IMG/VR virus record: IMGVR_UViG_3300042914_003231
Coordinates: 1 to 64,000 of that record
DNA: 64,000 nt
From: a virus
Taxonomy: Duplodnaviria > Heunggongvirae > Uroviricota > Caudoviricetes
Strand: one strand, 5' to 3'
The notes beneath the pieces were generated by a model. That model had not been told where the DNA came from and did not search any database. It saw nothing but the letters and a program-made list of their open reading frames with translations. Position numbers and translations under genes: made by a program. Of this stretch, positions 2,803 through 44,719 are shown in pieces (position 1 is the first letter of the stretch; each line of letters opens with the position of its first letter).

Positions 2803-3027
2803 CTATGTTGATAATTTCTCATTCACTATAGTGATTTTTACCACATCATGGTGATAATGCAACCAGGCTTTTGCCTTCTTAATGTCTTCATCCGTGTGAT
2901 GACTTTCTTTAAATAGCTGGTAAGCACATCCTCCTGGACCTGCTAGATCTTCTCGGTAGAGCATATCATTGATATCTCCACCAGTTGCCCCATTGGGTCT
3001 TAGTTCTTTTAGAGTTAGAGTACTCAT
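2803..3027 (-). CDS. hypothetical protein, 74 aa
   Basis: ORF track. Confidence 0.6.
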   Translation of the reverse strand: MSTLTLKELRPNGATGGDINDMLYREDLAGPGGCAYQLFKESHHTDEDIKKAKAWLHYHHDVVKITIVNEKLST

Positions 3028-3188
3028 TTTGTAGAATTATTATCCACAAAATAAGTATCGGCTTCTTTTCCTACTACCAATTTAAACCTGAATGTACAGG
3101 TCAATATGGCTATTAGGATCAAGAAAGCACATGCCTTAGGATGGCTTTCTATTGCTGCTAGGAATGTTTCCATGCTGAATTCCTCCAT
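3024..3188 (-). CDS. small membrane protein, 54 aa (below the track cut-off)
   Basis: Manual translation: MEEFSMETFLAAIESHPKACAFLILIAILTCTFRFKLVVGKEADTYFVDNNSTK. Start and stop overlap the neighbouring genes (ATGA-type junctions), filling an otherwise empty gap. Confidence 0.4.
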   Translation of the reverse strand: MEEFSMETFLAAIESHPKACAFLILIAILTCTFRFKLVVGKEADTYFVDNNSTK

Positions 3189-3421
3189 TATGTTCTTTTT
3201 TTAATGCCGAACGCTATACCTATTTGTGAGGTATAGATGAATCGGTCTGATTGTTCTGTATCTATGTGTGCCCATGGTGGTACTATCTCCTTAACCAGAG
3301 TATCAAAGTCTGAGGGTTCCATAATAACCAACAGTCTAAGATTCTCTGGCATCGGGGATAGTCTATACACATGATGGGCAAACAATTCGATATCAGCTTG
3401 TGTTTTTAGGTTGTTTTCCAT
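3188..3421 (-). CDS. hypothetical protein, 77 aa
   Basis: ORF track. Confidence 0.6.
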   Translation of the reverse strand: MENNLKTQADIELFAHHVYRLSPMPENLRLLVIMEPSDFDTLVKEIVPPWAHIDTEQSDRFIYTSQIGIAFGIKKRT

Positions 3422-4755
3422 TAGAATGGTAATTCTGCAAAATCTGTTACTGGAGCCTTGTCTCCTAATGCACTTCTATAATCCAGTAAGTGCTGGGTGA
3501 TCATATCTCTCAATTCCTGTGGTGGATTGTGACCTTCTCTTCCATTACGGAAGCCTTGAAGTTGGTGCATGCGTAAGCTCTTACCTACTTCCAGAGTATA
3601 CCGGATATCCTTGTATACCATAGAGAATATACCACAGTCTCCATTGTTTATTCTGCTTGCATATGTTGCTACACAATGTTCTTGTTCAATACTTTCCTGA
3701 AGCAATCGCTTCTTGCTATCAACCTCTTCTACAGGTATAGCGAAGTCCTTGAACAGACCTTTGTAATTTTTGTGCATTTTCACATGCTTCACACCCTTTA
3801 AAATTCTTTCCCTGCTAAGCTTGCTGTGTTCATCTCGCATTCTCTTGTCTGAGGTGATCTTTAAGGAGAGCTTTTTGTCCAGCTCATAGTGGTCATTCAA
3901 CCAGTCTTCTACTAACCATGACAATTCATCCTTACCAAAGCACATCTCAGAGATGAGACAACCCAGACTATACTTACTTTTAGATCCTCCTGTAAGACCG
4001 TCTAAAAAAGATATGCGAGTCTCACGAGTCTCTTCAGCTTGTTTCTTTTCTTTTTCCAGGATAAACTGACAAACTCTGTTCATCTCTCCTGGATTCTGAA
4101 GTACTTTGCAAAGAACATCTAAACCCTTTATGCTTAACTTTTCAATAAGCAGTTTAGGTATCTTTACATTGTACATCTTCTCAATGACTTCAGCCTCATT
4201 TTTAGTGTTCATAAAGTTTCTGGTAAGAACTTTATCTAATACTGGCTGGTAGTCAATGTTAAGAACTGTTTTCAAGATCTGAGGACCATATGTATGAGGA
4301 ATGCGACCACCCTTCATTATTCTCGGGCCTCTGTATCTTCTGCTGGCTATGAACACATACAATTGTTTACTGTAACAAAAGATAGGATGGTTTTTCTTAA
4401 AAGGATAGAATCGGTTCTTTTTGTAAGCATAAGCATATCCATGCTCAAACTCGGCAATACTGATGCGATCTTTTTCTTTGTTGTAGAGTATAGAAAGAAC
4501 TGTTTTAACAGGCCTAGACCTATATCCATTGACTGCTTTCATGTATATCTCTGAGTCTGGTTCATGTTTCCAACCATGCTCTTTGAAATAGTTCTTACAG
4601 TACTCAATTGCTTTTAAGTTATCAGGAGAGGTCATGTCAAAGTAATAGGAGATGAATTGCTCATTCTCTATTACCTTAACCTCCCTTTCATCAGACTGTG
4701 GACGGTATAGATCCTTTACAGTCTCTATTATCCGGTTGAATATTTCTCTTTTCAT
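3421..4755 (-). CDS. PcfJ-like protein, 444 aa
   Basis: The C-terminal segment EQEHCVATYASRINNGDCGIFSMVYKDIRYTLEV...LQGFRNG resembles the PcfJ-family signature (HCV..Y...I..G). Assigned from memory, not searched. Confidence 0.55.
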   Translation of the reverse strand: MKREIFNRIIETVKDLYRPQSDEREVKVIENEQFISYYFDMTSPDNLKAIEYCKNYFKEHGWKHEPDSEIYMKAVNGYRSRPVKTVLSILYNKEKDRISIAEFEHGYAYAYKKNRFYPFKKNHPIFCYSKQLYVFIASRRYRGPRIMKGGRIPHTYGPQILKTVLNIDYQPVLDKVLTRNFMNTKNEAEVIEKMYNVKIPKLLIEKLSIKGLDVLCKVLQNPGEMNRVCQFILEKEKKQAEETRETRISFLDGLTGGSKSKYSLGCLISEMCFGKDELSWLVEDWLNDHYELDKKLSLKITSDKRMRDEHSKLSRERILKGVKHVKMHKNYKGLFKDFAIPVEEVDSKKRLLQESIEQEHCVATYASRINNGDCGIFSMVYKDIRYTLEVGKSLRMHQLQGFRNGREGHNPPQELRDMITQHLLDYRSALGDKAPVTDFAELPF

Positions 4756-5530: not shown

Positions 5531-6514
5531 TTATTTCATGTTGAACATTGCTGAAGTATTCCCACCCAACATGGTGGTAGGATACTTACCATCCCAGTTA
5601 GAAGCTCTGATGTAATCGATATACTGTTGGCTTAACTGTGCTTGCTTAAGCTTCATAGCCTTAGATTCTGCATCTGCTTCTACTAACATGGCTTGTGCTC
5701 TACCTGAAGCTGTAATAACGGCTTTGGCTGAATCACCTCTAGCTAGGGCAATCTTGGTTTTGGCTTGTGCATCTGCAACAATAGCCTTTTGTATTTCCCC
5801 TTGAGCTAGCTGTACAGCCTTAGTCTTTTCTTCGATCGCGTTTCTTAATGCTTCTGGTGGAACAATATTAGTTCTAAGCTGAGATATGACAAACCATTTA
5901 CTAGTCCTCTTATTACATTCTGTAACAATCTCTGCTTCAAACTGCTCTCTCTTATTAAAGATGTCATCTACAGACCATCTATTTGCCACATCATTTACTG
6001 ATCCCACAATAGCTGTCATTAACCATCCTTGTTCTATATCCTTCACTCCGAGTCTTAGAGCTTCAAACATATCTCCGACTGCATCTGCTTTTAAGGAATA
6101 GTTGAAGGTTGGTTTAATAACTGCTGAGAATCCTCCCTTTGTTATGACACCCTGATCACCATATTCAATATGTTGCTGGTAAGTAGGAAATTCATACAGT
6201 TTTTCTACCCATGTATTATAAGCTACCCAACCGGTTTTATACTGGTAGTCACTGACCCCGCGTTCATCACCTGATAGTTTAACTTTAATACCTACATGAC
6301 CAGCATCTACCCTCTCAAGGGTGTAAGGTTGAAATATGGCAACAAGCATACCTATAATGAGGATCAATAAAGGCTTAATTAGCCATGCCGGATTAGTTTT
6401 TTCAACCAAGTCATTGTACCGATCCTTAGTTTTGATTTTTGCATTTTCGCGGGTGCTAAATAGCATACCGATTACAAATAGGAGCACTGCTCCAAAAATT
6501 ATCCATGAAATCAT
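5531..6514 (-). CDS. SPFH/band-7 (prohibitin/HflC-like) membrane protein, 327 aa
   Basis: N-terminal TM segments, then VDAGHVGIKV... and an Ala/Gln/Lys-rich coiled tail (AIEEKTKAVQLAQGEIQKAIVADAQAKTKIALARG) typical of SPFH domains. Confidence 0.75.
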   Translation of the reverse strand: MISWIIFGAVLLFVIGMLFSTRENAKIKTKDRYNDLVEKTNPAWLIKPLLILIIGMLVAIFQPYTLERVDAGHVGIKVKLSGDERGVSDYQYKTGWVAYNTWVEKLYEFPTYQQHIEYGDQGVITKGGFSAVIKPTFNYSLKADAVGDMFEALRLGVKDIEQGWLMTAIVGSVNDVANRWSVDDIFNKREQFEAEIVTECNKRTSKWFVISQLRTNIVPPEALRNAIEEKTKAVQLAQGEIQKAIVADAQAKTKIALARGDSAKAVITASGRAQAMLVEADAESKAMKLKQAQLSQQYIDYIRASNWDGKYPTTMLGGNTSAMFNMK

Positions 6515-11858: not shown

Positions 11859-12171
11859 GGTTTATAGGTTTAAATGGTTATACAATAAGAGCTGAGTCAG
11901 CCTCGGTTAATATCTTTAAAGCTGTGGTGATCCTTTCCTACCTATATAAGGATATAGTAATAGGTATAGATATAGAGATAGTAGTATATAGGGTAATATC
12001 TTTAAGCAAGTAAACCTATTAGGTTTATTAGCTATATGGTGCACGCTCGCCTAAAGGGTGATTGAGGGCTTATTGATCATGGTATCAAAGTGTTGTAGGG
12101 AGTTCACCCCACCTCATGCACACTCTTTTCTTACACATTATCAACTAGTTAGCTGGTTTTTTGTTTGCTTT

Positions 12172-12420
12172 AGACCTGATGAGATCTATTCAACCGGTGT
12201 TATTCTCCCTATATATAGAGATAAGATAACCACCAAGTACTAAACCTGACACAACTATGCGAAGAAATATTCAAAGTGTTTGTCCTATATATAGGGAAAC
12301 ATCTACCAACTATACCATAGACCTGATAAGACTATGCGAAGACTATTTAAAAACACAGTAGATACCAAGAAAAGAAAAAGAAAAGGAACATAGGGATATT
12401 ACTCCCTATATTCCTCTGTC
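12172..12420. repeat. three degenerate tandem modules of about 70-77 bp (starts 12172, 12242, 12319), each with A(G/A)ACCTGA and a CCTATATATAG(G) core
   Basis: Exact 12-mer ACTATGCGAAGA at 12254 and 12331. CCTATATATAG at 12208 and 12284. TAGGGA/TCCCTA hairpin at 12391-12409. Confidence 0.8.
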
Positions 12421-12433
12421 CCCTCTTTATCTC

Positions 12434-12883
12434 CTACATTTTGTCAACACCGCCTTTAACAGCCGCATTCTTTGCTTGCAACTTGGCAATGTTAGCTGAG
12501 CGATTGCTAGCCAATGTGCCTGCAAAACGCTTTAGTTCAGCAAGCTTATCTTGTGCATAAGCTGCTTTGGTAGCCTCATCAGCACCGCTGATTAAGTCGG
12601 CCAATTGCTTCTCTACTGAGTTATCAGTAAACCAGATGATTTCTCCTGAAGCACTTACTGTACGCTCCAATGTTGCCGAAGTACCATACTTAACAGCGGC
12701 TTTTGCTGTGAAGTGGATTAATGGGTTGCCCTCATCGTCCTGACTGTCAATACCTTTAGCCAATTGGTCTTGGCGGTATTGTTCTGCACCCTCGCCAGTT
12801 ACCTTGTAACTAACCATTGGTGTTCCTGTTTCCTTAGCTTTGTAAGGATTTGGGTTGCTGATTGTGATTGTTTTCTTTTCCAT
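12434..12883 (-). CDS. hypothetical protein, 149 aa, GC-richer codon usage
   Basis: ORF track. Codon usage is visibly richer in G/C-ending codons than in neighbouring genes. Confidence 0.7.
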   Translation of the reverse strand: MEKKTITISNPNPYKAKETGTPMVSYKVTGEGAEQYRQDQLAKGIDSQDDEGNPLIHFTAKAAVKYGTSATLERTVSASGEIIWFTDNSVEKQLADLISGADEATKAAYAQDKLAELKRFAGTLASNRSANIAKLQAKNAAVKGGVDKM

Positions 12884-12931
12884 TTTGAGTTGGTTTTTAA
12901 GTTATGACATTATTGTCAAGGTAGTTAATGG

Positions 12932-12963
12932 GATACAAGAGAAAGAAGATACAAGAGAAAGAA
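12932..12963. repeat. tandem 16-mer GATACAAGAGAAAGAA x2, followed by degenerate copies
   Basis: Read directly. Confidence 0.9.
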
Positions 12964-13213
12964 TACACACAGAAGAATGCACACAGGTAGCCATTGCTAT
13001 CCCATGTGCATGTCCATGACAACAAAGAACGATCACCTCAAGTCGAGGCAAATAGACCCATTGATCTTAACCACTGATTTCTTCAGTGATCTGGCCAGTG
13101 TGGTGGCTGAGTCTAATGATGGATATTGTGCTATATATTGTAGCACATGTTTGCTACTAGCCTTATCCCACACTTGTTTAAATACCTGATACATAAGCCT
13201 TTATTTAAGTTAG

Positions 13214-13348
13214 TTAATGTGATACTACAGCCATAACTATGGCCGAGTCAATAACAGCAAGCCAAAGCATTGCTATTATTTTTTTGATTACTGTCCAGTC
13301 CTTTGCATCAGATAATGCAACACCTAGACCTAATGATAGTGTTATCAT
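13214..13348 (-). CDS. small membrane peptide, 44 aa (below the track cut-off)
   Basis: Manual translation: MITLSLGLGVALSDAKDWTVIKKIIAMLWLAVIDSAIVMAVVSH. Confidence 0.35.
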   Translation of the reverse strand: MITLSLGLGVALSDAKDWTVIKKIIAMLWLAVIDSAIVMAVVSH

Positions 13349-13375
13349 AGCTTTAAGTTTTTGAATAACAGTGGA

Positions 13376-13579
13376 TTATTCTCCACTGTTATTTGAGTTA
13401 TCTTTATCCCAAGCATTGTGTCCTGCAATGCTGTTAGAGATGGTGCCGTCTATATTTCTATAGAATGACTGTTTACCTGTGTATCCTTCTTTAGGAGTGA
13501 ATGCTGGTCTTTGCTTTACAGGAGACTTGGTCTCTACTGATGGCACTTGCATGAAGCCGATTACTGGTACATTTCTCAT
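13376..13579 (-). CDS. hypothetical protein, 67 aa
   Basis: ORF track; first gene of the leftward block. Confidence 0.5.
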   Translation of the reverse strand: MRNVPVIGFMQVPSVETKSPVKQRPAFTPKEGYTGKQSFYRNIDGTISNSIAGHNAWDKDNSNNSGE

Positions 13580-13606
13580 ATGATGTTGGTTTGTGTTAAA
13601 ATAATG

Positions 13607-13742
13607 ATCAAGTGCTACAGGGTGTACATTCCCTGCTCACTATTCTAGGACTCCCTCTCGTAGGTGTATTAAGTAGTAGCCACGACTGGCCTTACTCCCC
13701 CGAATAGTCTCTCAGGATTTCTCCTGTCTTGAGCACTTGATC
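13607..13742. other. structured module A: 11-bp perfect inverted repeat closing about 114 nt
   Basis: GATCAAGTGCT (13607-13617) pairs with AGCACTTGATC (13732-13742). Confidence 0.6.
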
Positions 13743-13937
13743 AATCAAGTTGATGGGATAAAGAAGAAAGAATAGAGTAAGGTGATGAGTGGATCTCTCC
13801 ACTCGCGGCCTTATATAGTTTGTCGTTGCCCTACACATGCAACTATTAAGTATGCAGGGATCGTCCTTGGTTGGCTACATGCTCAAGGATGCATGGATGA
13901 CATGATACCATCTCATCAATCAAGTTCATGGGATAAA
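13741..13937. repeat. 22-mer direct repeat TCAATCAAGTT(G/C)ATGGGATAAA, one copy after each structured module
   Basis: 13741-13762 and 13916-13937 differ by one mismatch and are 175 bp apart. Confidence 0.85.
13783..13918. other. structured module B: inverted repeat TGATGAG(T)GG / CC(AT)CTCATCA
   Basis: 13783-13792 pairs with 13908-13918. An internal hairpin GAGTGGA-tctc-TCCACTC lies at 13787-13804. Confidence 0.5.
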
Positions 13938-14012
13938 AAAAGACAGAACTTTTTCTCCAAGGAAAAAAGTTTCTTACCAGGCTGAATTAGGAAAATGTTT
14001 TTTTCAGACCCT

Positions 14013-14058
14013 GGGGGTAGGGGGTACTATGAAACACGGGGGGAGGTTGTTGGGGAGG
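14013..14058 (+). other. G-run cluster (possible G-quadruplex)
   Basis: GGGGG ta GGGGG ... GGGGGG a GG ... GGGG a GG, within an otherwise AT-rich genome. Confidence 0.4.
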
Positions 14059-14146
14059 ACCCAATCCACAAACACTATTATGTAAAATACCCACCCCGGG
14101 ATATTATATTCTATTGATCAGGTATTGCTTATCTTAGAATTTGAGT

Positions 14147-14154
14147 TATATTTG
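14147..14154 (+). promoter_or_regulatory. Bacteroidota-type -7 box TATATTTG, 4 nt before ATG 14159
   Basis: Matches the TAnnTTTG consensus. Confidence 0.5.
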
Positions 14155-14158
14155 TCCT

Positions 14159-14902
14159 ATGAAAAAAAGTACAATATGGGTTATTGTGGGACTGATAGGA
14201 GTCTTGCTTATTACCCTGGCTTGGATTATGATTTATTCTAAGCCTAAACCTATTCCGGATATAAAAAATGGAGTAACCTATCATAAGATTTATAATCATA
14301 CTAAGGATTCGGTATTGGTATGGGTTACTTTGGGGGCAACCCCGGGGTGTCTGCAGGATGTGACTAAGATACCTTTTGTTACTTCTGGATCAGGGTTAGT
14401 AGGATCCTTCTACCTAGCAGCTGGTGATTCTACTATTTGGTATGCACCGGACTCAGTTGGATTCAATGGAGTATTTAGCTTTAATTATCAGCCAGATAAC
14501 TGCCCAGCTCCTACGTATCCTAACGGTATTAACCAGTATGAGTTTATAGTGAACAATGCATTCCAAGCAGGACAACCTCAAGAGAGTATCAATATCTCAT
14601 GTGTTCATGGGGTGAACTGTGTTATTCGTGTAGATATAATTACTAGTAATCCATTTAATGCCGGCTCTAAAGTTCCTGTTGTGGAAAGCTTTGCTAATAC
14701 ACTTGATCGGAATCAACTTGGTATCCCTGGTGTATACCCGTATGCGTGCACACATTGTACAGACTACATAGGAGCCCCCGGCTGTATCTCTACTCCTCAG
14801 CCTGTTTCTAAAGAACAAATCTGCCAGGTACAAAGACCAGCTAACCAATCAGGAGGAATGATAAAAGTTATATATTTAGGAAATGAAGAACCTGCAAAAT
14901 AA
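14159..14902 (+). CDS. membrane-anchored or secreted Cys-containing protein, possibly thaumatin-like fold, 247 aa
   Basis: N-terminal TM segment. The segment NQYEFIVNN...ESINISCVHGVNCVIRV resembles the thaumatin T.AEF.L...D.YDVSLVDGFN.P pattern. The ATG at 14159 is preferred over the track's TTG at 14141. Confidence 0.6.
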   Translation: MKKSTIWVIVGLIGVLLITLAWIMIYSKPKPIPDIKNGVTYHKIYNHTKDSVLVWVTLGATPGCLQDVTKIPFVTSGSGLVGSFYLAAGDSTIWYAPDSVGFNGVFSFNYQPDNCPAPTYPNGINQYEFIVNNAFQAGQPQESINISCVHGVNCVIRVDIITSNPFNAGSKVPVVESFANTLDRNQLGIPGVYPYACTHCTDYIGAPGCISTPQPVSKEQICQVQRPANQSGGMIKVIYLGNEEPAK

Positions 14903-14903
14903 A

Positions 14904-14935
14904 TTTGCATAATTAAAAAAACTATATTATATTTG
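14904..14935 (+). promoter_or_regulatory. promoter: TTTG (-33) N20 TATATTTG (-7)
   Basis: TTTG at 14904-14907 and TATATTTG at 14928-14935. Same spacing as the promoter at 16511-16542. Confidence 0.6.
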
Positions 14936-14939
14936 TAAC

Positions 14940-15079: not shown

Positions 15080-15151
15080 GGACTCATAGCTCAGTAGGTA
15101 GAGCGCAGGACTGAAAATCCTGCCGCACTGGTTCGATTCCAGTTGAGTCCA
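15080..15151 (+). tRNA. tRNA-Phe (GAA)
   Basis: Acceptor GGACTCA/TGAGTCC; D GCTC/GAGC; anticodon arm CAGGA-CTGAAAA-TCCTG; T arm ACTGG-TTCGATT-CCAGT. Confidence 0.92.
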
Positions 15152-15156
15152 CACAA

Positions 15157-15239
15157 GCCGACACTGTAGAGTGGGAGATCTACACCAGACTGTAAATCTG
15201 GAGTCTTAGACTTTGGGAGTTCGAATCTCTCTGGCGGCA
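15157..15239 (+). tRNA. tRNA-Tyr (GTA), long variable arm
   Basis: Acceptor GCCGACA/TGGCGGC (one mismatch); arm CCAGA-CTGTAAA-TCTGG; T arm GGGAG-TTCGAAT-CTCTC. Confidence 0.85.
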
Positions 15240-15244
15240 CAAAA

Positions 15245-15330
15245 GGAAGGTTGGCAGAGCCTGGCCGATTGCACCAGTCTTGAAAACTGGAGGTCCCTTG
15301 GATCCGTGAGTTCGAATCTCACACCTTCCT
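15245..15330 (+). tRNA. tRNA-Ser (TGA)
   Basis: Acceptor GGAAGGT/ACCTTCC; arm CCAGT-CTTGAAA-ACTGG; long variable arm; T arm GTGAG-TTCGAAT-CTCAC. Confidence 0.9.
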
Positions 15331-15390
15331 CAACATGCATAGAAAAATGCACTTTTCTATACATGTTTTTTGAAAGTGCATAAAAACTAT

Positions 15391-15431
15391 ACATCTCTAG
15401 CTCAACTGGCGGAGCAGCGGTCTCCAAAACC
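15391..15431 (+). pseudogene. truncated tRNA-Trp-like 5' portion (acceptor 5' strand to anticodon loop only)
   Basis: D arm GCTC-AACTGGCG-GAGC and loop CTCCAAA. Shares the 13-mer GGTCTCCAAAACC with the intact tRNA-Trp (15419-15431 versus 15834-15846). No T arm and no 3' acceptor complement. Confidence 0.6.
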
Positions 15432-15464
15432 ATAAAGCAGTTTGGATACTGAAGTAAAAACATG

Positions 15465-15472
15465 TATATTTG
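15465..15472 (+). promoter_or_regulatory. -7 box TATATTTG, 3 nt before ATG 15476
   Basis: Matches TAnnTTTG. Confidence 0.45.
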
Positions 15473-15475
15473 TAC

Positions 15476-15817
15476 ATGCCTTCAAAAAATAAAGAAATAC
15501 TAAAAAAGCATAGAGATGCTTGGTATAAAAAGAATAAAAAAAAACAGATTACTAACCAGCTTGAAAAAAGACAGGAATTAAAGAAATGGTTTCAGGAATA
15601 TAAGAGATCATTATCTTGTAAAGAGTGTGGATTTAGCTTTGAATTATTTCCAGAATGTTGTGATTTCCATCACAGAGATGGAGATACAAAGAAAGATGTA
15701 GTAAGCAGATTGCTACCAATGGGAATAAAAGCACTAAAGAAAGAGATTGAAAAATGTGATCCTCTTTGTGCTAATTGTCATAGAAAGCTCCATGCAAAAT
15801 TAGAATATACAGGTTAG
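15476..15817 (+). CDS. HNH homing endonuclease (free-standing, inside the tRNA array)
   Basis: CKECG...CCDFHHRDGDTKKD...CDPLCANCHRKLH is an HNH/zinc-finger motif. The stop codon lies inside the tRNA-Trp 5' end. Confidence 0.8.
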   Translation: MPSKNKEILKKHRDAWYKKNKKKQITNQLEKRQELKKWFQEYKRSLSCKECGFSFELFPECCDFHHRDGDTKKDVVSRLLPMGIKALKKEIEKCDPLCANCHRKLHAKLEYTG

Positions 15818-15880
15818 CTTATTGGAAGCACCAGGTCTCCAAAACCTCGGATGGAAGGAGTTCGATTCTCTTAACCTGTG
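15809..15880 (+). tRNA. tRNA-Trp (CCA)
   Basis: Acceptor ACAGGTT/AACCTGT; D GCTT/AAGC; loop CTCCAAA; T arm AGGAG-TTCGATT-CTCTT. Confidence 0.85.
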
Positions 15881-15885
15881 CACAA

Positions 15886-15957
15886 GGTACCGTGGGTGAG
15901 GGGTTTAGCCTCAGGTCTGCAAAACCTGCTACGTCTGTTCGAATCAGACCGGTACCT
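15886..15957 (+). tRNA. tRNA-Cys (GCA)
   Basis: Acceptor GGTACCG/CGGTACC; arm CAGGT-CTGCAAA-ACCTG; T arm GTCTG-TTCGAAT-CAGAC. Confidence 0.92.
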
Positions 15958-15958
15958 C

Positions 15959-16174
15959 ATGAAAGAGATAGATGAAGAGTTCAACTTACTTCAGTTGTAC
16001 ATCTATGATTGCATCAACCGGATGTGTTTGAATGCATACATAGATAAGACTAAGTGTTCTCATCACCCTTTGTATACTTTTGAAGAATACAAAACGGCAA
16101 TATGGGATCCTTGGACTGGAGAGACTGTAGCAAGTAGAACAAGATGGGCTTTAAATATTAAGCCTTTATTTTAG
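15959..16174 (+). CDS. hypothetical protein, 71 aa, flush between tRNA-Cys and tRNA-Ser
   Basis: The ATG lies 2 nt after the tRNA-Cys discriminator. The stop TAG (16172-16174) overlaps the tRNA-Ser start (16173). The track ORF 15878.. was trimmed to the first ATG outside the tRNA. Confidence 0.5.
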   Translation: MKEIDEEFNLLQLYIYDCINRMCLNAYIDKTKCSHHPLYTFEEYKTAIWDPWTGETVASRTRWALNIKPLF

Positions 16175-16257
16175 AGAAGTGGCTGAGTGGCTTAAGGCAC
16201 CGCACTGCTAACGCGGAGGATGTAACAGTTCCACCGGTTCGAATCCGGTCTTCTCTG
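16173..16257 (+). tRNA. tRNA-Ser (GCT)
   Basis: Acceptor AGAGAAG/CTTCTCT; loop CTGCTAA; long variable arm; T arm ACCGG-TTCGAAT-CCGGT. Confidence 0.88.
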
Positions 16258-16262
16258 CAAAT

Positions 16263-16343
16263 GCCCATATGGTGGAATGGTAGACGCGCTGGTCTTAGGA
16301 ACCAGTACCGTAAGGTATGTAGGTTCGAGTCCTACTATGGGTA
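16263..16343 (+). tRNA. tRNA-Leu (TAG)
   Basis: Acceptor GCCCATA/TATGGGT; arm CTGGT-CTTAGGA-ACCAG; long variable arm; T arm GTAGG-TTCGAGT-CCTAC. Confidence 0.9.
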
Positions 16344-16348
16344 CATAT

Positions 16349-16431
16349 ACTCCTGTGGTGTAATTGGTAGCCGCGCTAGGCTTAAGACTCAGTGGACTTA
16401 GTCCGTGCCGGTTCGAGTCCGGCCAGGAGTA
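16349..16431 (+). tRNA. tRNA-Leu (TAA)
   Basis: Acceptor ACTCCTG/CAGGAGT; loop CTTAAGA (weak anticodon stem); variable stem GGACT/AGTCC; T arm GCCGG-TTCGAGT-CCGGC. Confidence 0.8.
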
Positions 16432-16474
16432 CTTTGCTCACCTGATTAATAAAGTGACCAAAAATTATTACACT

Positions 16475-16520
16475 GTCTACCAATCAGTTAGACCTTCTGA
16501 AGAAAATATTTTTGGTAGAC
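16475..16520 (+). other. 9-bp stem-loop at the end of tRNA block 1
   Basis: GTCTACCAA (16475-16483) pairs with TTGGTAGAC (16512-16520). The 3' arm overlaps the -33 TTTG of the next promoter. Confidence 0.5.
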
Positions 16521-16542
16521 TCAAACAAACCTATTATATTTG
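16511..16542 (+). promoter_or_regulatory. promoter: TTTG (-33) N20 TATATTTG (-7)
   Basis: TTTG at 16511-16514 and TATATTTG at 16535-16542. Confidence 0.6.
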
Positions 16543-16550
16543 TCTTGCAA

Positions 16551-16652
16551 ATGAAACGCATACAACATATCCAGATGGCCAATACAGGCAGAAATACGGT
16601 GGAGATTAAAGATCCGACCGTGTCCATGGGTGTTGCATGTAGTTTTAGATAA
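16551..16652 (+). CDS. leader ORF 2, 33 codons: MKRIQHIQMANTGRNTVEIKDPTVSMGVACSFR
   Basis: ATG lies 8 nt after the -7 box. Residues 2-24 use only the 14 amino acids served by the 16 downstream tRNAs, and all 14 occur. A terminator follows 28 nt after the stop. Confidence 0.5.
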   Translation: MKRIQHIQMANTGRNTVEIKDPTVSMGVACSFR

Positions 16653-16680
16653 GACATTTTTAGTTAGCTAAACCGCATTA

Positions 16681-16710
16681 AACCCCTGGACAAGTTCTAG
16701 GGGTTTTTTG
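16681..16710 (+). terminator. intrinsic terminator immediately before tRNA-Pro
   Basis: Stem (AA)CCCCTGG/CTAGGGG(TT) with a 7-nt loop and T6. Confidence 0.8.
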
Positions 16711-16718
16711 TTTTACCC

Positions 16719-16791
16719 CGGGATGTAGATCAGTTGGTAGATTGCGTGCTTTGGGAGCATGAGGTCGCAGGTTCGAGCCCTGTCATCCCGA
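16719..16791 (+). tRNA. tRNA-Pro (TGG)
   Basis: Acceptor CGGGATG/CATCCCG; arm CGTGC-TTTGGGA-GCATG; T arm GCAGG-TTCGAGC-CCTGT. Confidence 0.9.
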
Positions 16792-16847
16792 CTAGCAGAA
16801 GTGGTACTCCAGTGCCCGTACTGAAAACCAAACAAAACTGGAGACAT

Positions 16848-16920
16848 GGGGTTCAAGCACAAGCGGACGTGCATTAGCTTTGCAAGCTAGAGGATCTCGG
16901 TTCGAGGCCGAGGAGCTCCA
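16848..16920 (+). tRNA. tRNA-Ala (TGC)
   Basis: Acceptor GGGGTTC/GAGCTCC with a G3:U70 pair; D GCAC/GTGC; arm TTAGC-TTTGCAA-GCTAG; T arm CTCGG-TTCGAGG-CCGAG. Confidence 0.88.
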
Positions 16921-16921
16921 C

Positions 16922-17083
16922 ATGAATGAAGAACTATATAATTGGCTGGAGAAGATGTTTATGTTCTCCAATATCCCTAAGTACAGGAAGTACTTTAAGG
17001 AATGGGTGGACAACATAACTGAAGATCAGATCACCGGTTTTCAGAGAATGATGGGAGCCAACTATAAGATTAAGCAGGAATAG
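16922..17083 (+). CDS. hypothetical protein, 53 aa, flush between tRNA-Ala and tRNA-Gly
   Basis: The ATG lies 2 nt after the tRNA-Ala discriminator. The stop TAG (17081-17083) lies inside tRNA-Gly, which starts at 17074. Confidence 0.5.
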   Translation: MNEELYNWLEKMFMFSNIPKYRKYFKEWVDNITEDQITGFQRMMGANYKIKQE

Positions 17084-17148
17084 CTCATCCTTGGTAGAGC
17101 TCCAGTCTTCCAAACTGGAGGTGGCGAGTTCGAGCCTCGCTTCCTGCT
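17074..17148 (+). tRNA. tRNA-Gly (TCC)
   Basis: Acceptor GCAGGAA/TTCCTGC; arm CCAGT-CTTCCAA-ACTGG; T arm GCGAG-TTCGAGC-CTCGC. Confidence 0.92.
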
Positions 17149-17331
17149 CACAACTGCAGTGCCCATGTACAGTGGGGGTACAATCACTGCAGGTAGAAGA
17201 GTGCTAAGAAATCCGGTGTTGGGTTAGCTCTGGACACTAAGGTAAGGAGTGGGTAAGGACCACAGTCCCCGTCTAACAGGGACAAAGTTTTGCAAAAGCC
17301 TTCCCTGGGATGGAGCACTCTTCATGATATT
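17149..17331 (+). ncRNA. structured non-tRNA spacer RNA (unknown family)
   Basis: 8-bp hairpin CTGCAGTG/CACTGCAG (17154-17192). 10-bp long-range helix GAAGAGTGCT (17196-17205) with AGCACTCTTC (17314-17323). Inner hairpin GTCCC...GGGAC. GC-enriched; no cloverleaf. Confidence 0.4.
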
Positions 17332-17407
17332 GGTCTGTTAGGGGAGTCCGGCCGTCCCTACCTCACTGTCTATGAGGGGATCACGGGTTCGAATCCCGTA
17401 CAGACCG
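17332..17407 (+). tRNA. tRNA-Asp (GTC)
   Basis: Acceptor GGTCTGT/ACAGACC; arm CCTCA-CTGTCTA-TGAGG; T arm ACGGG-TTCGAAT-CCCGT. Position 37 is an unusual T. Confidence 0.78.
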
Positions 17408-17518
17408 CTGGGCGGTAGTCTAATGAGCAGGGTTAGTAGCGTGCTGACTAACTAGTCTTAGGACGATCATCTTATGGGATGATAGATATCAGTAACCATT
17501 CTGATCTGCCCCACCAAT
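17408..17518 (+). ncRNA. second structured non-tRNA spacer (unknown)
   Basis: Hairpins ATCATC-ttatgg-GATGAT and ATCAG-taaccatt-CTGAT; ends ...CTGCCCCACCA; repeated TAGTCT(A/T)A. Confidence 0.3.
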
Positions 17519-17590
17519 TGCCCCTTAGCTCAGCGGTAGAGCAAAACCCTGTTAAGGTTGAGGTCCTAGGTTCAATCCCTAGAGGGGCAG
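17519..17590 (+). tRNA. tRNA-Asn (GTT)
   Basis: Acceptor TGCCCCT/AGGGGCA; loop CTGTTAA; T arm CTAGG-TTCAATC-CCTAG. Confidence 0.9.
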
Positions 17591-17595
17591 CAAAT

Positions 17596-17670
17596 AGACG
17601 AGTAGCTCAGCCTGGTTAGAGCGCCCGCCTGATACGCGGAGGGTCACAGGTTCAAATCCTGTCTTGTCTA
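17596..17670 (+). tRNA. tRNA-Ile (GAT)
   Basis: Acceptor AGACGAG/CTTGTCT; loop CTGATAC; T arm ACAGG-TTCAAAT-CCTGT. Confidence 0.88.
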
Positions 17671-17727
17671 CTTTGGGACCGTTTGGTAGTGACATAGTCT
17701 TGAACTAGATCATAGAAACTATCACAT

Positions 17728-17800
17728 AGGAGTATAGCTCAGTTGGGAGAGCATCCGGTTTACATCCGGACGGTCCAAGGTTCGAGTCCTTGTATTCCTA
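17728..17800 (+). tRNA. tRNA-Val (TAC)
   Basis: Acceptor AGGAGTA/TATTCCT; arm TCCGG-TTTACAT-CCGGA; T arm CAAGG-TTCGAGT-CCTTG. Confidence 0.9.
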
Positions 17801-17884
17801 CAAACTTTAAAGATTTAAACTTATAATGTTTACACTATTAAAATATAAGGTTATAAAGAGAAGGATAAAACCTTAACTCATTAT

Positions 17885-17956
17885 TCCCTCATAGCTTAGT
17901 GGTAAAGCAGTATACTTTTAATATACGGAGCGGCAGTTCGATTCTGCCTGGGGGAA
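17885..17956 (+). tRNA. tRNA-Lys (TTT)
   Basis: Acceptor TCCCTCA/TGGGGGA; arm GTATA-CTTTTAA-TATAC; T arm GGCAG-TTCGATT-CTGCC. Confidence 0.9.
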
Positions 17957-17962
17957 CTTTAA

Positions 17963-18034
17963 ACCCCCGTAGCTCAATGGAAGAGTAAGAGACTTCTAAG
18001 CTCAAGGTTACCAGTTCGAGTCTGGTCGGGGGTT
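17963..18034 (+). tRNA. tRNA-Arg (TCT)
   Basis: Acceptor ACCCCCG/CGGGGGT; loop CTTCTAA (short GAG/CTC stem); T arm ACCAG-TTCGAGT-CTGGT. Confidence 0.82.
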
Positions 18035-18040
18035 CTGAAT

Positions 18041-18114
18041 AGGCCCTTAGCTCAGTTGGTTAGAGCAGTACTCTTATAAGGTAAAGGTCACCGGTTCAAA
18101 CCCGGTAGGGCCTA
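18041..18114 (+). tRNA. tRNA-Ile (TAT), reads ATA
   Basis: Acceptor AGGCCCT/AGGGCCT; loop CTTATAA; T arm ACCGG-TTCAAAC-CCGGT. Confidence 0.85.
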
Positions 18115-18124
18115 CATAATATTT

Positions 18125-18199
18125 AGCGGGGTGACTGGAGTTGGTTCCAGCACAGCCTCATAAACTGTACAGACGCGGGTTCGAGTCCCGCCCCCGCTA
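18125..18199 (+). tRNA. tRNA-Met (CAT), elongator-like
   Basis: Acceptor AGCGGGG/CCCCGCT; loop CTCATAA; T arm GCGGG-TTCGAGT-CCCGC. No 3xG:C initiator signature in the anticodon stem. Confidence 0.85.
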
Positions 18200-18265
18200 C
18201 AATGAGTGCTAATGACACCTGATAAAGGAGGGGATATATTACCAGGTCCCCCGACACTCAGTAAC

Positions 18266-18337
18266 GCTCCCATCATCTAGGGGTCAGGATATCAGGTTTT
18301 CGACCTGAGCACCAGGGTTCGAATCCCTGTGGGAGTA
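18266..18337 (+). tRNA. tRNA-Glu (TTC)
   Basis: Acceptor GCTCCCA/TGGGAGT; arm TCAGG-TTTTCGA-CCTGA; T arm CAGGG-TTCGAAT-CCCTG. Confidence 0.9.
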
Positions 18338-18342
18338 CTTAA

Positions 18343-18415
18343 GCTTGAGTAGCACAATTGGTAGTGCACCTCCCTTGTAAGGAGAAGGTTGTCAGTTCGA
18401 GTCTGACCTCAAGCT
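18343..18415 (+). tRNA. tRNA-Thr (TGT)
   Basis: Acceptor GCTTGAG/CTCAAGC; D GCAC/GTGC; loop CTTGTAA; T arm GTCAG-TTCGAGT-CTGAC. Confidence 0.9.
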
Positions 18416-18417
18416 CT

Positions 18418-18491
18418 GTGTCTGTAGAGGAATTGGTAGACTCCCCGGAATGTGGATCCGGTGCTTGTGGGTTCAAGTCCCATCAGACACC
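18418..18491 (+). tRNA. tRNA-His (GTG)
   Basis: Acceptor GTGTCTG/CAGACAC; arm CCGGA-ATGTGGA-TCCGG; T arm GTGGG-TTCAAGT-CCCAT. The only tRNA followed by an encoded CCA. Base -1 is T, not G. Confidence 0.88.
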
Positions 18492-18497
18492 CCATTA

Positions 18498-18571
18498 GTT
18501 CTCATAGCTCAATTGGATAGAGTCCTTGACTACGGATCAAGAGGTTGAAGGTTCGACTCCTTCTGAGAACA
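18498..18571 (+). tRNA. tRNA-Arg (ACG)
   Basis: Acceptor GTTCTCA/TGAGAAC; arm CTTGA-CTACGGA-TCAAG; T arm GAAGG-TTCGACT-CCTTC. Confidence 0.92.
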
Positions 18572-18576
18572 CATAA

Positions 18577-18647
18577 TGCCCTTTCGTCTAACGGCAGGAC
18601 CTGTGGTTTTGGGCCACATGATCGAGGTTCGAATCCTTGAGGGGCAA
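18577..18647 (+). tRNA. tRNA-Gln (TTG)
   Basis: Acceptor TGCCCTT/AGGGGCA; arm TGTGG-TTTTGGG-CCACA; T arm CGAGG-TTCGAAT-CCTTG. Followed by a T-run. Confidence 0.9.
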
Positions 18648-18680
18648 CTAGTTTTTTATTGTTTGCACATCCAAAGTTTT

Positions 18681-20287: not shown

Positions 20288-20622
20288 TGTCAATAGGTAA
20301 TTTAAAAACTAACGGAAATAAGGGGAACAATTTTCCTTATCAACTAGCAGTATTAGAGTTGCTAAGACAAATAGCTTCTGGTACAGGAGGATCTGGTGTT
20401 GCAAGAGCTTCATCTATGATCAGAAGTTCTTCTGCAGGTTCTATTTCTGCAGGTGCAAAATCTGTTTCTTTTTACAATTCAGGAACTGTAAATGCTACAG
20501 TTTTAGGAAGTGCTCTTAAACCAGGTGAACAAGTAACTTTTAGTGTAGAAAATCCAGACACACTTCAAACTATTCCTTATTCAGGTGTAGGAACTGATTT
20601 ATTAATAACTACAATAGTATAA
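20287..20622 (+). CDS. fibre-associated protein, 111 aa; paralogue of 23007..23510
   Basis: N-terminus MSIGNLKTNGNKGNNFPYQLAVLELL is nearly identical to that of 23007..23510. Confidence 0.6.
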   Translation: MSIGNLKTNGNKGNNFPYQLAVLELLRQIASGTGGSGVARASSMIRSSSAGSISAGAKSVSFYNSGTVNATVLGSALKPGEQVTFSVENPDTLQTIPYSGVGTDLLITTIV

Positions 20623-23010: not shown

Positions 23011-23510
23011 GTATAGGAAACTTAAAAAATAATGGTAATAAAGGTAACAATTTTCCTTATCAATTAGCGGTCTTAGAATTGCTTAATAGTATAGCAAATT
23101 CTGGATCAAATCCTTGTTGCCCTACTGCTGCCACAGAAGCTACACTTTTAACTAGATTAAGTAAAGCAGACTTTGAAGCAAGGATTAATACTCTTGGTCA
23201 AAAGACTATGAATGAATCTACTCCAGTAACTTTAGCTATTGATCAATCTTCTATTCCGGTTACCCTACCTGCAGGTGTATCTCTTACTCCAAGTCTTGTA
23301 CTTGTTCCTGCTAATACAGCACTTACAAATACAGTAGCTGGTAAGAAGCAGGTGAGTATGCGCGCTAGTGGAGGAAATGTAACAATAGGGGGTGTAGCTG
23401 TACCTAACGGAACTACTCTTACTTATACAGCTGAAGGAAATAATACTATAGGATCTATATCTTATCAAACTGGTGCAGGCTCAACAATATTAATCTCTTA
23501 TTTGACATAA
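23007..23510 (+). CDS. fibre-associated protein, 167 aa; paralogue of 20287..20622
   Basis: MSIGNLKNNGNKGNNFPYQLAVLELL. Start moved to ATG 23007, in frame with the track ORF 22965... Confidence 0.6.
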   Translation: MSIGNLKNNGNKGNNFPYQLAVLELLNSIANSGSNPCCPTAATEATLLTRLSKADFEARINTLGQKTMNESTPVTLAIDQSSIPVTLPAGVSLTPSLVLVPANTALTNTVAGKKQVSMRASGGNVTIGGVAVPNGTTLTYTAEGNNTIGSISYQTGAGSTILISYLT

Positions 23511-27226: not shown

Positions 27227-27294
27227 AAACTATACACCTTTTAAATACTACTAGTCTGCAAAATAAATATTTAACATTTAAACTTGTATAGTTT
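27227..27294. repeat. 10-bp inverted repeat AAACTATACA / TGTATAGTTT with four (G/A)TTTAAAC copies nearby
   Basis: 27227-27236 pairs with 27285-27294. TTTAAAC occurs at about 27224, 27277, 27315 and 27322. Confidence 0.75.
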
Positions 27295-27306
27295 ATAGAA
27301 AAACAT

Positions 27307-27314
27307 TATATTTG
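27307..27314 (+). promoter_or_regulatory. -7 box TATATTTG upstream of 27330
   Basis: Matches TAnnTTTG. Confidence 0.5.
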
Positions 27315-27329
27315 TTTAAACTTTAAACT

Positions 27330-44649: not shown

Positions 44650-44670
44650 ATTTGCACAAAAGATAAAGAT

Positions 44671-44682
44671 TTTGTATATTAG
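44671..44682 (+). promoter_or_regulatory. candidate late-promoter box TTTGTATATTAG
   Basis: Same 13-mer as at 18680-18692. Confidence 0.4.
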
Positions 44683-44719
44683 TATTATTATTTATTTATA
44701 AACCTAAAAAAGAAAAAAA

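Follow-up and report, generated by a model that had tools for sequence, protein, structure and literature searches.

The interval in which two gene arms of a crAss-like phage diverge may hold the head of the leftward arm, made up of promoter cassettes and two short units (A and B), together with a conserved element at the arm junction. Judged from the sequence and its comparison with relatives, this joint model has about an even chance of being right. Apart from the one conserved element, the find is ordinary in kind. The features lie in a window of 64,000 nucleotides (64 kb), which is the whole stretch of DNA that was analysed, and their coordinates are given in Table 1.

Table 1. Features of the divergent junction and the adjoining ends of the two gene arms.
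Feature	Position	Strand	Remarks
ORF149	12434-12883	-	Left-arm gene
Motif copy containing AATGGGATA (12927)	12916-12937	-	Upstream of ORF149
Hairpin, then U/C-rich tract	12980-13016	-	Precede motif copy 12916-12937; z = -4.2
ORF53	13033-13194	-	Conserved in L023
Degenerate motif copy GTATCACATTAAC	13205-13226	-	10 nt upstream of ORF53
Stable hairpins	13227-13279	-	Precede motif copy 13205-13226; z = -3.9
12-bp perfect hairpin	13364-13393	-	Directly past ORF67 stop; candidate terminator
ORF67	13376-13579	-	Conserved small protein gene; five homologue clusters, 70-81% identity
Unit A	13605-13743	-	139 nt; 12-bp perfect closing stem; predicted four-way junction; ORF67 5' leader
Unit A inverted-repeat arms	13605-13616 TGATCAAGTGCT / 13732-13743 AGCACTTGATCA		115 nt between arms
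22-mer copy, minus-strand TTTATCCCATCAACTTGATTGA	13741-13762	-	Candidate promoter of unit A and ORF67
Unit B	13783-13918	-	136 nt, non-coding; candidate stand-alone small RNA
Unit B weak terminal inverted repeat	13783-13792 TGATGAGTGG / 13908-13918 CCATCTCATCA		7 bp, indel, 3 bp
7-bp hairpin, GAGA loop, then U/C-rich tract	13787-13804	-	Candidate unit B terminator
22-mer copy, minus-strand TTTATCCCATGAACTTGATTGA	13916-13937	-	Candidate first leftward promoter, upstream of unit B
A/T-rich hairpin	13945-13974		Conserved (alignments)
GAATTAGGAAAA block	13984-13995		Conserved; about 28 nt before G runs
G-run element	14013-14062	+	GGGGG TA GGGGG, 13 nt, GGGGGG, 8 nt, GGGG overlapping GAGGA, CCC
-7 box TATATTTG	14147-14154	+	Bacteroidota type; precedes 247-aa gene
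First rightward gene	14159-14902	+	247 aa; ATG at 14159

Phage and locus

The window phage is a distant crAss-like phage, and its likely host phylum is Bacteroidota. It encodes a terminase, a portal protein and a major capsid protein of the crAss type. The interval is the junction of two oppositely transcribed gene arms, as an earlier note on this DNA had described: all ORFs to the left of 13580 lie on the minus strand and all those to the right of 14159 on the plus strand. The right arm consists of rightward genes, including an array of 24 tRNA genes, and has promoters of the Bacteroidota type. A pattern scan found full TTTG-N-TAnnTTTG promoters on the plus strand at 14935, 15472 and 16542, and found no host-type promoter of this form on the minus strand of the left arm. 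The -7 box that precedes the first rightward gene is also present before the first rightward gene in related loci L003, L009, L012 and L023. The 247-aa protein encoded by this gene had no match in the phage collection. In the left arm, ORF67 and ORF53 are real genes, and ORF149 has no relatives in IMG/VR.

The region is not an assembly artefact, because an independent Logan assembly and a JGI contig agree with it. The Logan assembly is 99.98% identical to the window across 12.7 kb, and in the JGI contig ORF67 and the gene for the 247-aa protein are likewise separated by a gap of 579 nt. In L013 no gene is called in this gap.

Leftward promoter cassettes

The repeated motif of the interval can be read as part of a candidate leftward terminator-promoter cassette. 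The earlier note had reported the same 22-mer at two places and a related sequence at 12927. The two 22-mers are identical at 21 of 22 positions, and an extended match (13740-13765 and 13915-13940) is identical at 24 of 26. The related sequence is part of a third copy, and there is a fourth before ORF53. The sequence TATCCCAT occurs at 13935, 13760, 13224 and 12935, which are the four motif copies. All four have the same orientation, with spacings of 289, 536 and 175 nt, and they are confined to 12916-13937, with no copy elsewhere in the window. Each has a leftward ORF 10-45 nt downstream of it or a unit directly downstream. The 22-mer had been described as following the two units, but on the minus strand, the sensible one functionally, it precedes them. 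The minus-strand consensus is TTTATCCCATsAACTTGATTGA, preceded by a T/C-rich block. On the same strand three of the copies are preceded by a U/C-rich tract and by hairpins that are far more stable than shuffled sequences (z = -2.9, -3.9 and -4.2), and the orthologous hairpin of L014 has a z of -4.0.

The motif core is kept in relatives, in agreement with the earlier suggestion of a promoter region. A related core, TAWCYCAT, follows a CTTTCTT block at matching positions. For example, in L014, L015, L020 and L023 ORF48, ORF65 and the next gene are each preceded by TAACyCAT and, further upstream, by a CTTTCTT block, and the relatives in which ORF67 is 70-81% identical have three copies of GCTTTCwT...TAACyCAT at corresponding places. 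The core lies 19-20 nt upstream of the ORF65 start in relatives, and the segment with hairpin and promoter that precedes ORF65 in L021 and L023 shares about 80% identity with 12956-13016 of the window. The copy nearest the junction aligns with the first leftward motif of L014, L020 and L023. A profile built from the 12 motif copies matches the sites of these copies only. More distant relatives each have a repeated motif of their own upstream of leftward genes. Two features looked for in a phage-specific repeated promoter, co-oriented copies before successive units and their retention at orthologous positions, are both present here. The 22-mer has neither of the Bacteroidota housekeeping elements (-33 TTTG and -7 TAnnTTTG, spaced about 19-21 nt apart), and an exact scan of IMG/VR gave no match to it.

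The 22-mer would be a leftward promoter core of a kind other than the host housekeeping type. A cassette would consist of a terminator hairpin, a U/C-rich spacer and the motif, and four such cassettes would divide the leftward arm, over its first kilobase, into small transcription units that are independent of one another. These units would be early if other crAss-like phages are a guide, and they may be read by a phage polymerase; the virion polymerase motif DFDxD does not occur in the 64 kb. A non-coding first leftward cassette is also seen in L009, where a canonical terminator, GATCCTTCGGGATC and then TTTTCTTT, closes it.

Units A and B

Units A and B share only their ends, their length and one 9-mer. 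They had been described as two similar structured modules, but significant structure is confined to unit A. The two interiors have the same length, exactly 115 nt, and both contain TATTAAGTA at the same offset (62 and 61), at 13667-13675 in unit A and at 13844-13852 in unit B. This 9-mer occurs only three times in the window. The interiors are otherwise unrelated, with 181 of 1000 shuffles reaching the observed alignment score. The units have no ORF conserved with anything, and blastn gave no match to the region among 50,697 phage records. Rfam 15 gave no match on 12884-14140 at E <= 1 (in a scan of 7.5 kb) and only chance-level matches of at most 16 bits on 606 nt at E <= 10, and ARAGORN found nothing in the interval. 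The YrlA and Y_RNA models did not match, a closing stem being present in unit A, and no TROVE domain was found among the 20 window proteins scanned against Pfam. Reverse transcriptase and recombinase partner proteins were sought among the scanned proteins as well and not found.

Unit A has a strong predicted structure, especially on the minus strand. Its perfect inverted repeat, first given as 11 bp, is in fact 12 bp long. Perfect inverted repeats of at least 12 bp with long spacers occur three times in the 64 kb, all of them within 12.2-15.5 kb. Compared with shuffled sequences the whole unit has a z of -4.3 on the plus strand and -5.9 on the minus strand, and the interior alone has a z of -1.4 and -2.7, respectively, with 2 of 200 shuffles as good on the minus strand. 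The folding energy is -55.3 kcal/mol on the minus strand and -47.9 kcal/mol on the plus strand, and one hairpin of the predicted fold has a GAAA loop. The unit is absent from all relatives, including the closest, which is collinear on both sides. It would be a 139-nt insertion that separates the second promoter copy from the conserved ORF67. In its 12-bp closing stem the very first nucleotides of the transcript would be paired with a sequence that lies 26 nt ahead of the start codon, and the most likely role of the unit would be to stabilise or regulate the ORF67 mRNA as a structure at its 5' terminus. Known 5' mRNA stabilisers are similar in that the first nucleotides of the transcript are paired, and structured leaders are similar in that they occupy the 5' UTR of a conserved gene and leave the start codon uncovered. 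However, unit A is much larger than the classic 5' stabiliser hairpins (139 nt, with a four-way junction), and no riboswitch or leader family matched it.

Unit B is less structured and lies at the position of a protein gene in relatives. The arms reported for its inverted repeat are present, although they are imperfect, and the left arm overlaps a stronger local hairpin at 13787-13804 (-15.5 kcal/mol, z = -2.9, 1 of 200 shuffles as good). This hairpin is followed by a U/C-rich tract and not by a clean U tract. The folding of unit B is not significant against shuffles on either strand (z of about -2 for the whole unit and 0 to -0.5 for the interior), and its energy is -44 kcal/mol on the plus strand and -40 kcal/mol on the minus strand. 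In the closest relatives the same slot holds a gene for a 48-aa protein. Unit B may be what the first cassette transcribes, namely an ORF-less RNA of about 130-145 nt that would end at the hairpin 13804-13787. Two other readings of the unit were rejected. A tblastn search at E <= 100 gave no match that would make it a decayed copy of the 48-aa gene, and a hammerhead-like reading of its TGATGAG is contradicted by a missing GAAA core and by the Rfam result.

The conserved junction element

The G-run element is conserved at the junction in ten lineages (the window, L001, L003, L009, L012, L014, L020, L023, L025 and L056). The G5, G5, G6 and G4 runs that drew attention in the earlier note were found at 14013-14055, and they are the only motif of four tracts of three or more Gs on either strand of the 64 kb, with the top G4Hunter score of 1.88. 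In all ten lineages GGGGTA is invariant, and the element is present in a single copy, in a fixed orientation and at the arm junction. Six of the ten (the window, L001, L003, L014, L023 and L056), which are those where the GATTT block is readable, keep 27-29 nt between this block and the G runs. The four-tract motif is kept in the window, L003, L014, L020, L023 and L025, and is missing in L001, L009 and L012; L012 has a C tract in place of the second G tract. An AT-rich stretch follows the element in most lineages. Comparative genomics, which had been proposed as a check on the repeats of the interval, gives a divided answer, with conservation of the motif core and the G-run element and none whatever of the units.

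The G-run element, the GATTTnGAAA block and the A/T hairpin would together make up a single-copy cis element that is conserved in the clade and fixed in orientation. Its site of action is probably the DNA itself or the beginning of a transcript. With four tracts of at least three Gs and short loops, 14013-14055 has the sequence of a predicted G-quadruplex. A consensus RNA fold was tried and rejected, as an alignment of five sequences gave only one weak GGGG/CCCC hairpin on both strands considered, with no convincing covariation, and the folds of single sequences are no better than shuffles. A broad scan of IMG/VR with the G-run pattern found 43 loci, which is about the chance expectation, and many of them are GC-rich. 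Only L056 among the 43 is a demonstrable relative. In L055, L035 and L029 the element sits at a divergent junction and is oriented as in the window, with homology unproven.

Alternative explanations

Units A and B could be recently acquired filler. It is unlikely, but deserving of some weight, that they are non-functional insertions, either MITE-like or left by illegitimate recombination, and that only the promoters and the G-run element are functional. Unit A would then have arrived as a small element, bounded by inverted repeats, in the space between the promoter and ORF67, and unit B would be a second copy in decay, or unrelated filler, in place of the 48-aa gene. Both units are missing from every relative, even from the closest one, as such an origin would predict. 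The terminal inverted repeats of unit A are perfect over 11-12 bp, and the 11-bp repeat is flanked by a possible 3-bp duplication (AAT at 13603-13605 and 13743-13745), although these bases can also be read as the 12th base pair of the repeat. In addition, unit B is unstructured, and the early arm is mosaic, with the hairpin and promoter segment at 12956-13016 placed differently in relatives. MITEs are expected to have terminal inverted repeats, which unit A has, and multiple dispersed copies, which were not found: a short-word blastn search of the window and all fetched loci gave only chance 11-14-mers and no second copy of either unit. The terminal-repeat pattern, for which an exact match to both arms was required, was likewise unmatched in IMG/VR and in 185,579 GTDB species genomes. 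Independent random insertions are also hard to credit with interiors of equal length, the 9-mer at the same offset and the same motif base abutted, and the interior of unit A beats shuffles on the minus strand. It is very improbable that the units are instead stable RNAs transcribed rightward, with the 22-mer as a shared signal for 3' processing or termination. Phage T4 encodes small stable RNAs beside its tRNA genes, and here the plus-strand tRNA array is 1.1 kb downstream of the interval. A plus-strand sigma-70-like site (TTCTCA, 18 nt, TAAAAT) occupies 13573-13602, with its end 3 nt short of unit A. The closing stem of this unit is as perfect on one strand as on the other, and unit B folds slightly better on the plus strand. 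However, the sigma-70-like site is unlike the Bacteroidota type of the right arm and falls within the beginning of ORF67, the 22-mer has no terminator after it on the plus strand, and Rfam gave no match. The motif copies at 12916 and 13205 have no preceding plus-strand unit, while on the minus strand they are directly upstream of real genes, and the core just upstream of ORF65 in relatives also speaks for leftward promoters. A switch, which the earlier note had raised, would make unit A an inverton in which site-specific inversion at the 12-bp repeats turns ORF67 on and off. Invertible promoters of Bacteroides have a similar architecture, with perfect inverted repeats of 10-12 bp flanking 115-185 bp, and the likely host belongs to the Bacteroidota. 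This reading is nevertheless scarcely credible, since the interior of unit A contains neither a TAnnTTTG box nor the phage motif on either strand, no recombinase was found among the scanned left-arm proteins, and the independent assembly L013 has the same orientation.

An origin had also been suggested for this region. In its broadest form this reading has the whole interval act as DNA, whether as a replication origin or as a packaging or terminus region, in which the 22-mers are protein-binding repeats, the inverted repeat is a cruciform, and the G-run element with the A/T-rich block is the part for unwinding, an R-loop or a G-quadruplex. For the whole interval this is quite improbable. The cumulative GC skew has its minimum at 12-14 kb, but this coincides with, and is confounded by, the change of gene strand. 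The spacing of the 22-mers is not iteron-like and the copies track gene starts; there is no tight, regular repeat array and no DnaA box, and no initiator gene was identified nearby. A reading of TTATCCCAT as a DnaA box was rejected, as it matches at only 6 of 9 positions in the window and at 4 of 9 in relatives. The units are not conserved and therefore are no essential origin component. When restricted to the G-run element, a DNA-level role is a tentative possibility with more in its favour. The element is single-copy and fixed in orientation, its conservation reaches much further than that of its flanks, the window has no other G4 motif, and in most lineages an AT-rich stretch comes after it. 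Two independent contigs (L015 and L022) end inside it, although the breaks are about 25 nt apart and could reflect poor sequencing of G or C homopolymers; L014 and L015 differ in run length. The early genes of crAss001 adjoin the physical end of its genome, which has short direct terminal repeats, but crAss001 has no G-run element at its own junction. A more far-reaching reading, which we consider distinctly doubtful, takes the junction block (A/T hairpin, GATTTnGAAA, GGGGGTAGGGGG and further G tracts) and TAWCCCAT as the cis signals for the first steps of infection. The TAWCCCAT cassettes would be the first recognisable promoters of a crAss-type injected polymerase, the G-run element would mark the entry end, terminus or origin, possibly by way of a G-quadruplex or R-loop, and units A and B, having taken the place of a protein gene, would be new small RNAs of the early phase in a previously undescribed crAss-like clade.

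Comparison with known systems

The candidate cassettes resemble the early regions of several phage groups. Cassettes in the early and middle regions of T7-like and N4-like phages also have a motif of about 20 nt in one orientation before successive short units, with hairpins between the units, and the motif varies among related phages. In contrast to these phages, no single-subunit or N4-type polymerase was identified in the window, and the motif is not a hairpin like the N4 promoter (5-7-bp stem and 3-nt loop). Among crAss-like phages, phi14:2 and crAss001 are similar to the window in having small, poorly conserved early genes at the end of an arm, although their terminases are only about 24% identical to that of the window phage. 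A study of phi14:2 found abundant early non-coding transcripts from long intergenic regions and host RNA polymerase promoters for the middle and late genes. It found no common motif upstream of the early transcripts, unlike the clear repeated motif of the window, which leaves the proposed link to a virion polymerase as an analogy and no more. For the question of how the virion-delivered polymerase of crAss-like phages is directed to early genes, the motif of about 20 nt before the first leftward units of the window clade offers a concrete sequence for tests with polymerases of the host and the phage.

The orphan units would be an inexpensive place in which to seek phage small RNAs. In them a small protein gene appears to have been replaced by non-coding sequence under the same promoter. 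The non-coding region of phi14:2 has a near-threshold tmRNA match and nothing like unit A or unit B.

The G-run element resembles conserved sequence blocks that form G-quadruplexes or R-loops, such as conserved sequence block II (CSB II) of mitochondria. CSB II (G6AG8) and the element both have long G tracts, 2 nt apart in the window, on one fixed strand, and the element has further G tracts within 45 nt and is the only such site in the segment. In contrast to CSB II-type blocks, the four-tract motif is not kept in every lineage (L001, L009 and L012 lack it), no upstream promoter reading into the element was identified, and the quadruplex or R-loop is putative. The G-run block is a good candidate for a terminus, an origin or a master control site, and it could serve as a marker to orient metagenomic genomes of the clade.

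Setting and significance of the region

Its crAss-type proteins, divergent arms and Bacteroidota-type promoters place the studied region at the point where the arms of a distant crAss-like phage diverge, and make a Bacteroidota host probable. Divergent regulatory regions of phages that combine repeated promoter cassettes with candidate small RNAs are already known; the window's motif, its two orphan units and its conserved G-run block are examples not described before. Most of their moderate significance comes from the conserved G-run block and from the promoter motif, which can be tested.

The terminase, portal and major capsid protein match crAss-type PHROG families, and the terminase has about 24% identity to those of Crassvirales isolates infecting Bacteroides, Flavobacterium and Cellulophaga. 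The earlier note had proposed that transcription diverges here, and the sizeable ORFs bear this out: to the left of 13580 every one is read leftward (minus strand), and to the right of 14141 every one rightward (plus strand). Promoters of the full Bacteroidota type (TTTG, 17-23 nt, TAnnTTTG) are present on the plus strand and absent from the left arm's minus strand. An assembly artefact is ruled out for the region, since an independent Logan assembly recovers the same phage (99.98% identity across 12.7 kb) and in a JGI contig ORF67 and the 247-aa gene lie the same distance apart, 579 nt. No INPHARED phage record resembles the region, either as DNA or via the adjacent protein.

Features of the region and its flanks
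Feature	Positions	Strand	Remark
Motif copy	12916-12937	-	before ORF149, ~33 nt
Motif copy	13205-13226	-	before ORF53, 10 nt
Motif copy	13741-13762	-	before unit A and ORF67
Motif copy	13916-13937	-	before unit B
15-bp terminator with T run		-	3' of ORF149
12-bp perfect hairpin		-	3' of ORF67
Unit A	13605-13743	-	arms 13605-13616 / 13732-13743
Unit B	13783-13918	-	local hairpin 13787-13804
A/T hairpin and GATTT block	13945-13995
G-run element	14013-14062	+
TATATTTG box	14147-14154	+	before first rightward gene (ATG 14159)
Full Bacteroidota-type promoters	14935, 15472, 16542	+
24-tRNA array	15080-18648	+
Terminase	31442-33649

Several other features were observed in the right arm. A rightward Bacteroidota-type promoter family of about 42 nt (AAATTTG, ~20 nt, TATATTTG) is found at 14896-14937, 16503-16544, 27275-27316 and 44643-44684, and two of its members head parts of the tRNA array. 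Within the array lies a sequence similar to a tRNA 5' half (TAGCTCAACTGGCGGAGCAGCGGTCTCCAAAACC), not called by ARAGORN and enclosed by a perfect inverted repeat of 13 bp (15358-15370 / 15456-15468). The repeat is followed by a host-type promoter and an ORF (15470-15817) adjoining tRNA-Trp, whose CxxC...HxxxH pattern suggests an HNH endonuclease. A 71-nt direct repeat with 85% identity (20293-20363 and 23013-23083, 2.7 kb apart) probably marks paralogous genes.

Proposed leftward promoter cassettes

The 22-mer is most plausibly one lineage's version of a leftward promoter that is not of the housekeeping type and forms part of a terminator-promoter cassette. This reading rests on its placement before leftward units, the associated hairpins, the motif at the cassettes of relatives and the specificity of the profile. 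The pair in the earlier note matches at 21 of 22 positions, and the related sequence seen at 12927 proved to be part of a further copy. There are four co-oriented copies in all, two of them beyond that pair, and no fifth elsewhere in the 64 kb. Each lies directly upstream of a minus-strand unit or gene. Three are preceded on that strand by hairpins far more stable than shuffled sequences (z = -2.9, -3.9 and -4.2), each followed by a U/C-rich tract. Plus-strand support is limited to one generic sigma-70-like match ending at 13602, a promoter type that differs from that of the right arm.

With the 247-aa protein as query, ten metagenomic loci and one 128.5-kb IMG/VR genome were found at 50-76% identity, and ORF67 homologues, whose gene contexts were compared, have 70-81% identity. 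In the closer relatives the order is G-run element, motif, 48-aa gene, hairpin, motif, ORF65, motif and next gene. Their motif, GCTTTCwT...TAACyCAT, has the two-block design of TTCTTTCTT...TATCCCAT in the window; the copy before ORF65 is 19-20 nt from that gene's start codon. The window's 12956-13016, comprising a hairpin and the stretch before the motif, shares about 80% identity with the differently placed segment upstream of ORF65 in the relatives L021 and L023, showing that the cassettes are homologous and shuffled. Three more distant loci (L001, L003 and L009) each have their own repeated motif before leftward genes, and the first cassette of L009 is also non-coding, with a textbook terminator at its end. 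A profile built from 12 cassette copies detects those sites alone. The proposal of a divergent control region with a promoter is supported. Conservation of the repeats holds for the motif design, but not for units A and B.

A 16-mer, GATACAAGAGAAAGAA, is perfectly duplicated in tandem at 12932-12963, immediately adjoining the 12916 motif copy, and a third copy (81%) lies at 13757 beside the 13741 motif. On the minus strand it forms a T/C-rich block upstream of the motif.

Units A and B

Units A and B had been described as similar structured modules, and this holds in part. The perfect inverted repeat of unit A is confirmed at 12 bp, and the arms of unit B are present though weak (7 bp, an indel, then 3 bp) and compete with a stronger local hairpin. 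Both interiors are exactly 115 nt and share TATTAAGTA at offset 61-62. The unit bodies are otherwise unrelated, and a fold significantly better than that of shuffled sequences is seen for unit A only. The closing stem of unit A encloses a four-way junction, one hairpin of which is GAAA-capped; in RNA this stem would join the 5'-most bases of the transcript to a stretch 26 nt ahead of the ATG.

No relative compared has sequence alignable to 13600-13940. The closest, L023, is collinear on both sides (nucleotide identity 88% in the 247-aa gene, 84% in ORF67 and 87% in ORF53), and there the place of unit B, the 22-mer and unit A is taken by a 48-aa gene, a hairpin and a copy of the motif. Since the 48-aa gene is at the corresponding place, unit B occupies a protein gene's slot under an orthologous promoter; it has a hairpin at its end and no credible ORF. 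Unit A is additional sequence that separates ORF67 from the promoter. Both may be neutral insertions, a reading mildly opposed by their equal size, the common 9-mer TATTAAGTA and the identical unit-promoter junction. For the units no Rfam family was found, no partner protein (TROVE, reverse transcriptase or recombinase) among the window proteins scanned and, in scans requiring exact matches to both arms, no further copy in IMG/VR or GTDB genomes. With no recombinase found among the left-arm proteins scanned, a switch function is not supported.

A second non-coding stretch of the left arm, 11860-12430, is rich in TATATAGGG-type repeats and is a possible source of additional small RNAs. Its features are a perfect inverted repeat of 13 bp (12206-12218 / 12285-12297, 66 nt between), a direct repeat (ACCTGAyAmrACTATGCGAAGA at ~12246 and ~12323) and a strong minus-strand terminator (12417-12382) that closes it.

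The G-run element

The G-run cluster noted earlier is the window's only four-tract G-quadruplex motif and has the top G4Hunter score. It was compared in an eight-lineage alignment and an extended gapless comparison, as well as in L025 and in L056, which a pattern scan recovered as a demonstrable relative. The block consists, in order, of an A/T-rich hairpin, GATTTnGAAA, a gap, GGGGGTAGGGGG with an invariant GGGGTA, a second G cluster about 25 nt beyond, GAGGA (followed by CCC in some lineages) and an AT-rich stretch. The distance from the GATTT block start to the G runs is 27-29 nt in the six lineages where the block is readable. The block is single-copy, is invariably placed with the first leftward cassette on one side and the first rightward promoter on the other, and always has its G-rich strand on that of the rightward genes. 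The four-tract motif is retained in six lineages and lost in three, a consensus RNA structure is unsupported, and crAss001 lacks the block at its junction.

Two independently assembled sequences, an NCBI MAG contig labelled Spirochaetes (L015) and an ENA scaffold (L022), have their position 1 inside the element, suggesting either a physical end or sequencing dropout at G/C homopolymers; homopolymer length differs between L014 and L015. Judged from sequence, candidate roles are at the DNA level (terminus or packaging site, origin, binding platform) or as a transcript start. The earlier proposal that the region is an origin is not supported.

GGGGGTAGGGGG(G)... also occurs in the same orientation at divergent gene junctions of three IMG/VR contigs with 32-45% G+C (L055 4387-4428, L035 3674-3725 and L029 2073-2117, G-rich strand as plus). 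Protein similarity to the window is undetectable in these contigs, and L029 has one weak match to L001. The element may be more widespread than this clade, or these may be chance matches, as the scan returned about the number expected at random.

Comparison with phi14:2 and crAss001

The window layout fits the general early-region scheme of phi14:2 and crAss001. In phi14:2 an injected polymerase transcribes the early genes, for which no common upstream motif was found, and the host polymerase is used for middle and late genes. Abundant early non-coding RNAs of unknown function come from two long intergenic regions. In crAss001 the early genes are at one genome end, and the terminal direct repeats are short. 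By analogy, the left arm would be early and the motif would be read by a phage polymerase.

In phi14:2 (NC_021806), 4031-4502 scores just below the gathering threshold of the Rfam tmRNA family (46.0 bits against 47, E = 2.6e-16). It lies in the long non-coding early region 2904-4602, a reported source of abundant RNA, and one of these RNAs may be a phage tmRNA. In crAss001 (MH675552), about 280 nt without an annotated feature (5570-5850) separate a tRNA from the gene of the early transcriptional regulator Gp104, within the leftward early operon that also encodes the TROVE-domain protein Gp96. This is a candidate place to look for a Y-RNA-like partner.
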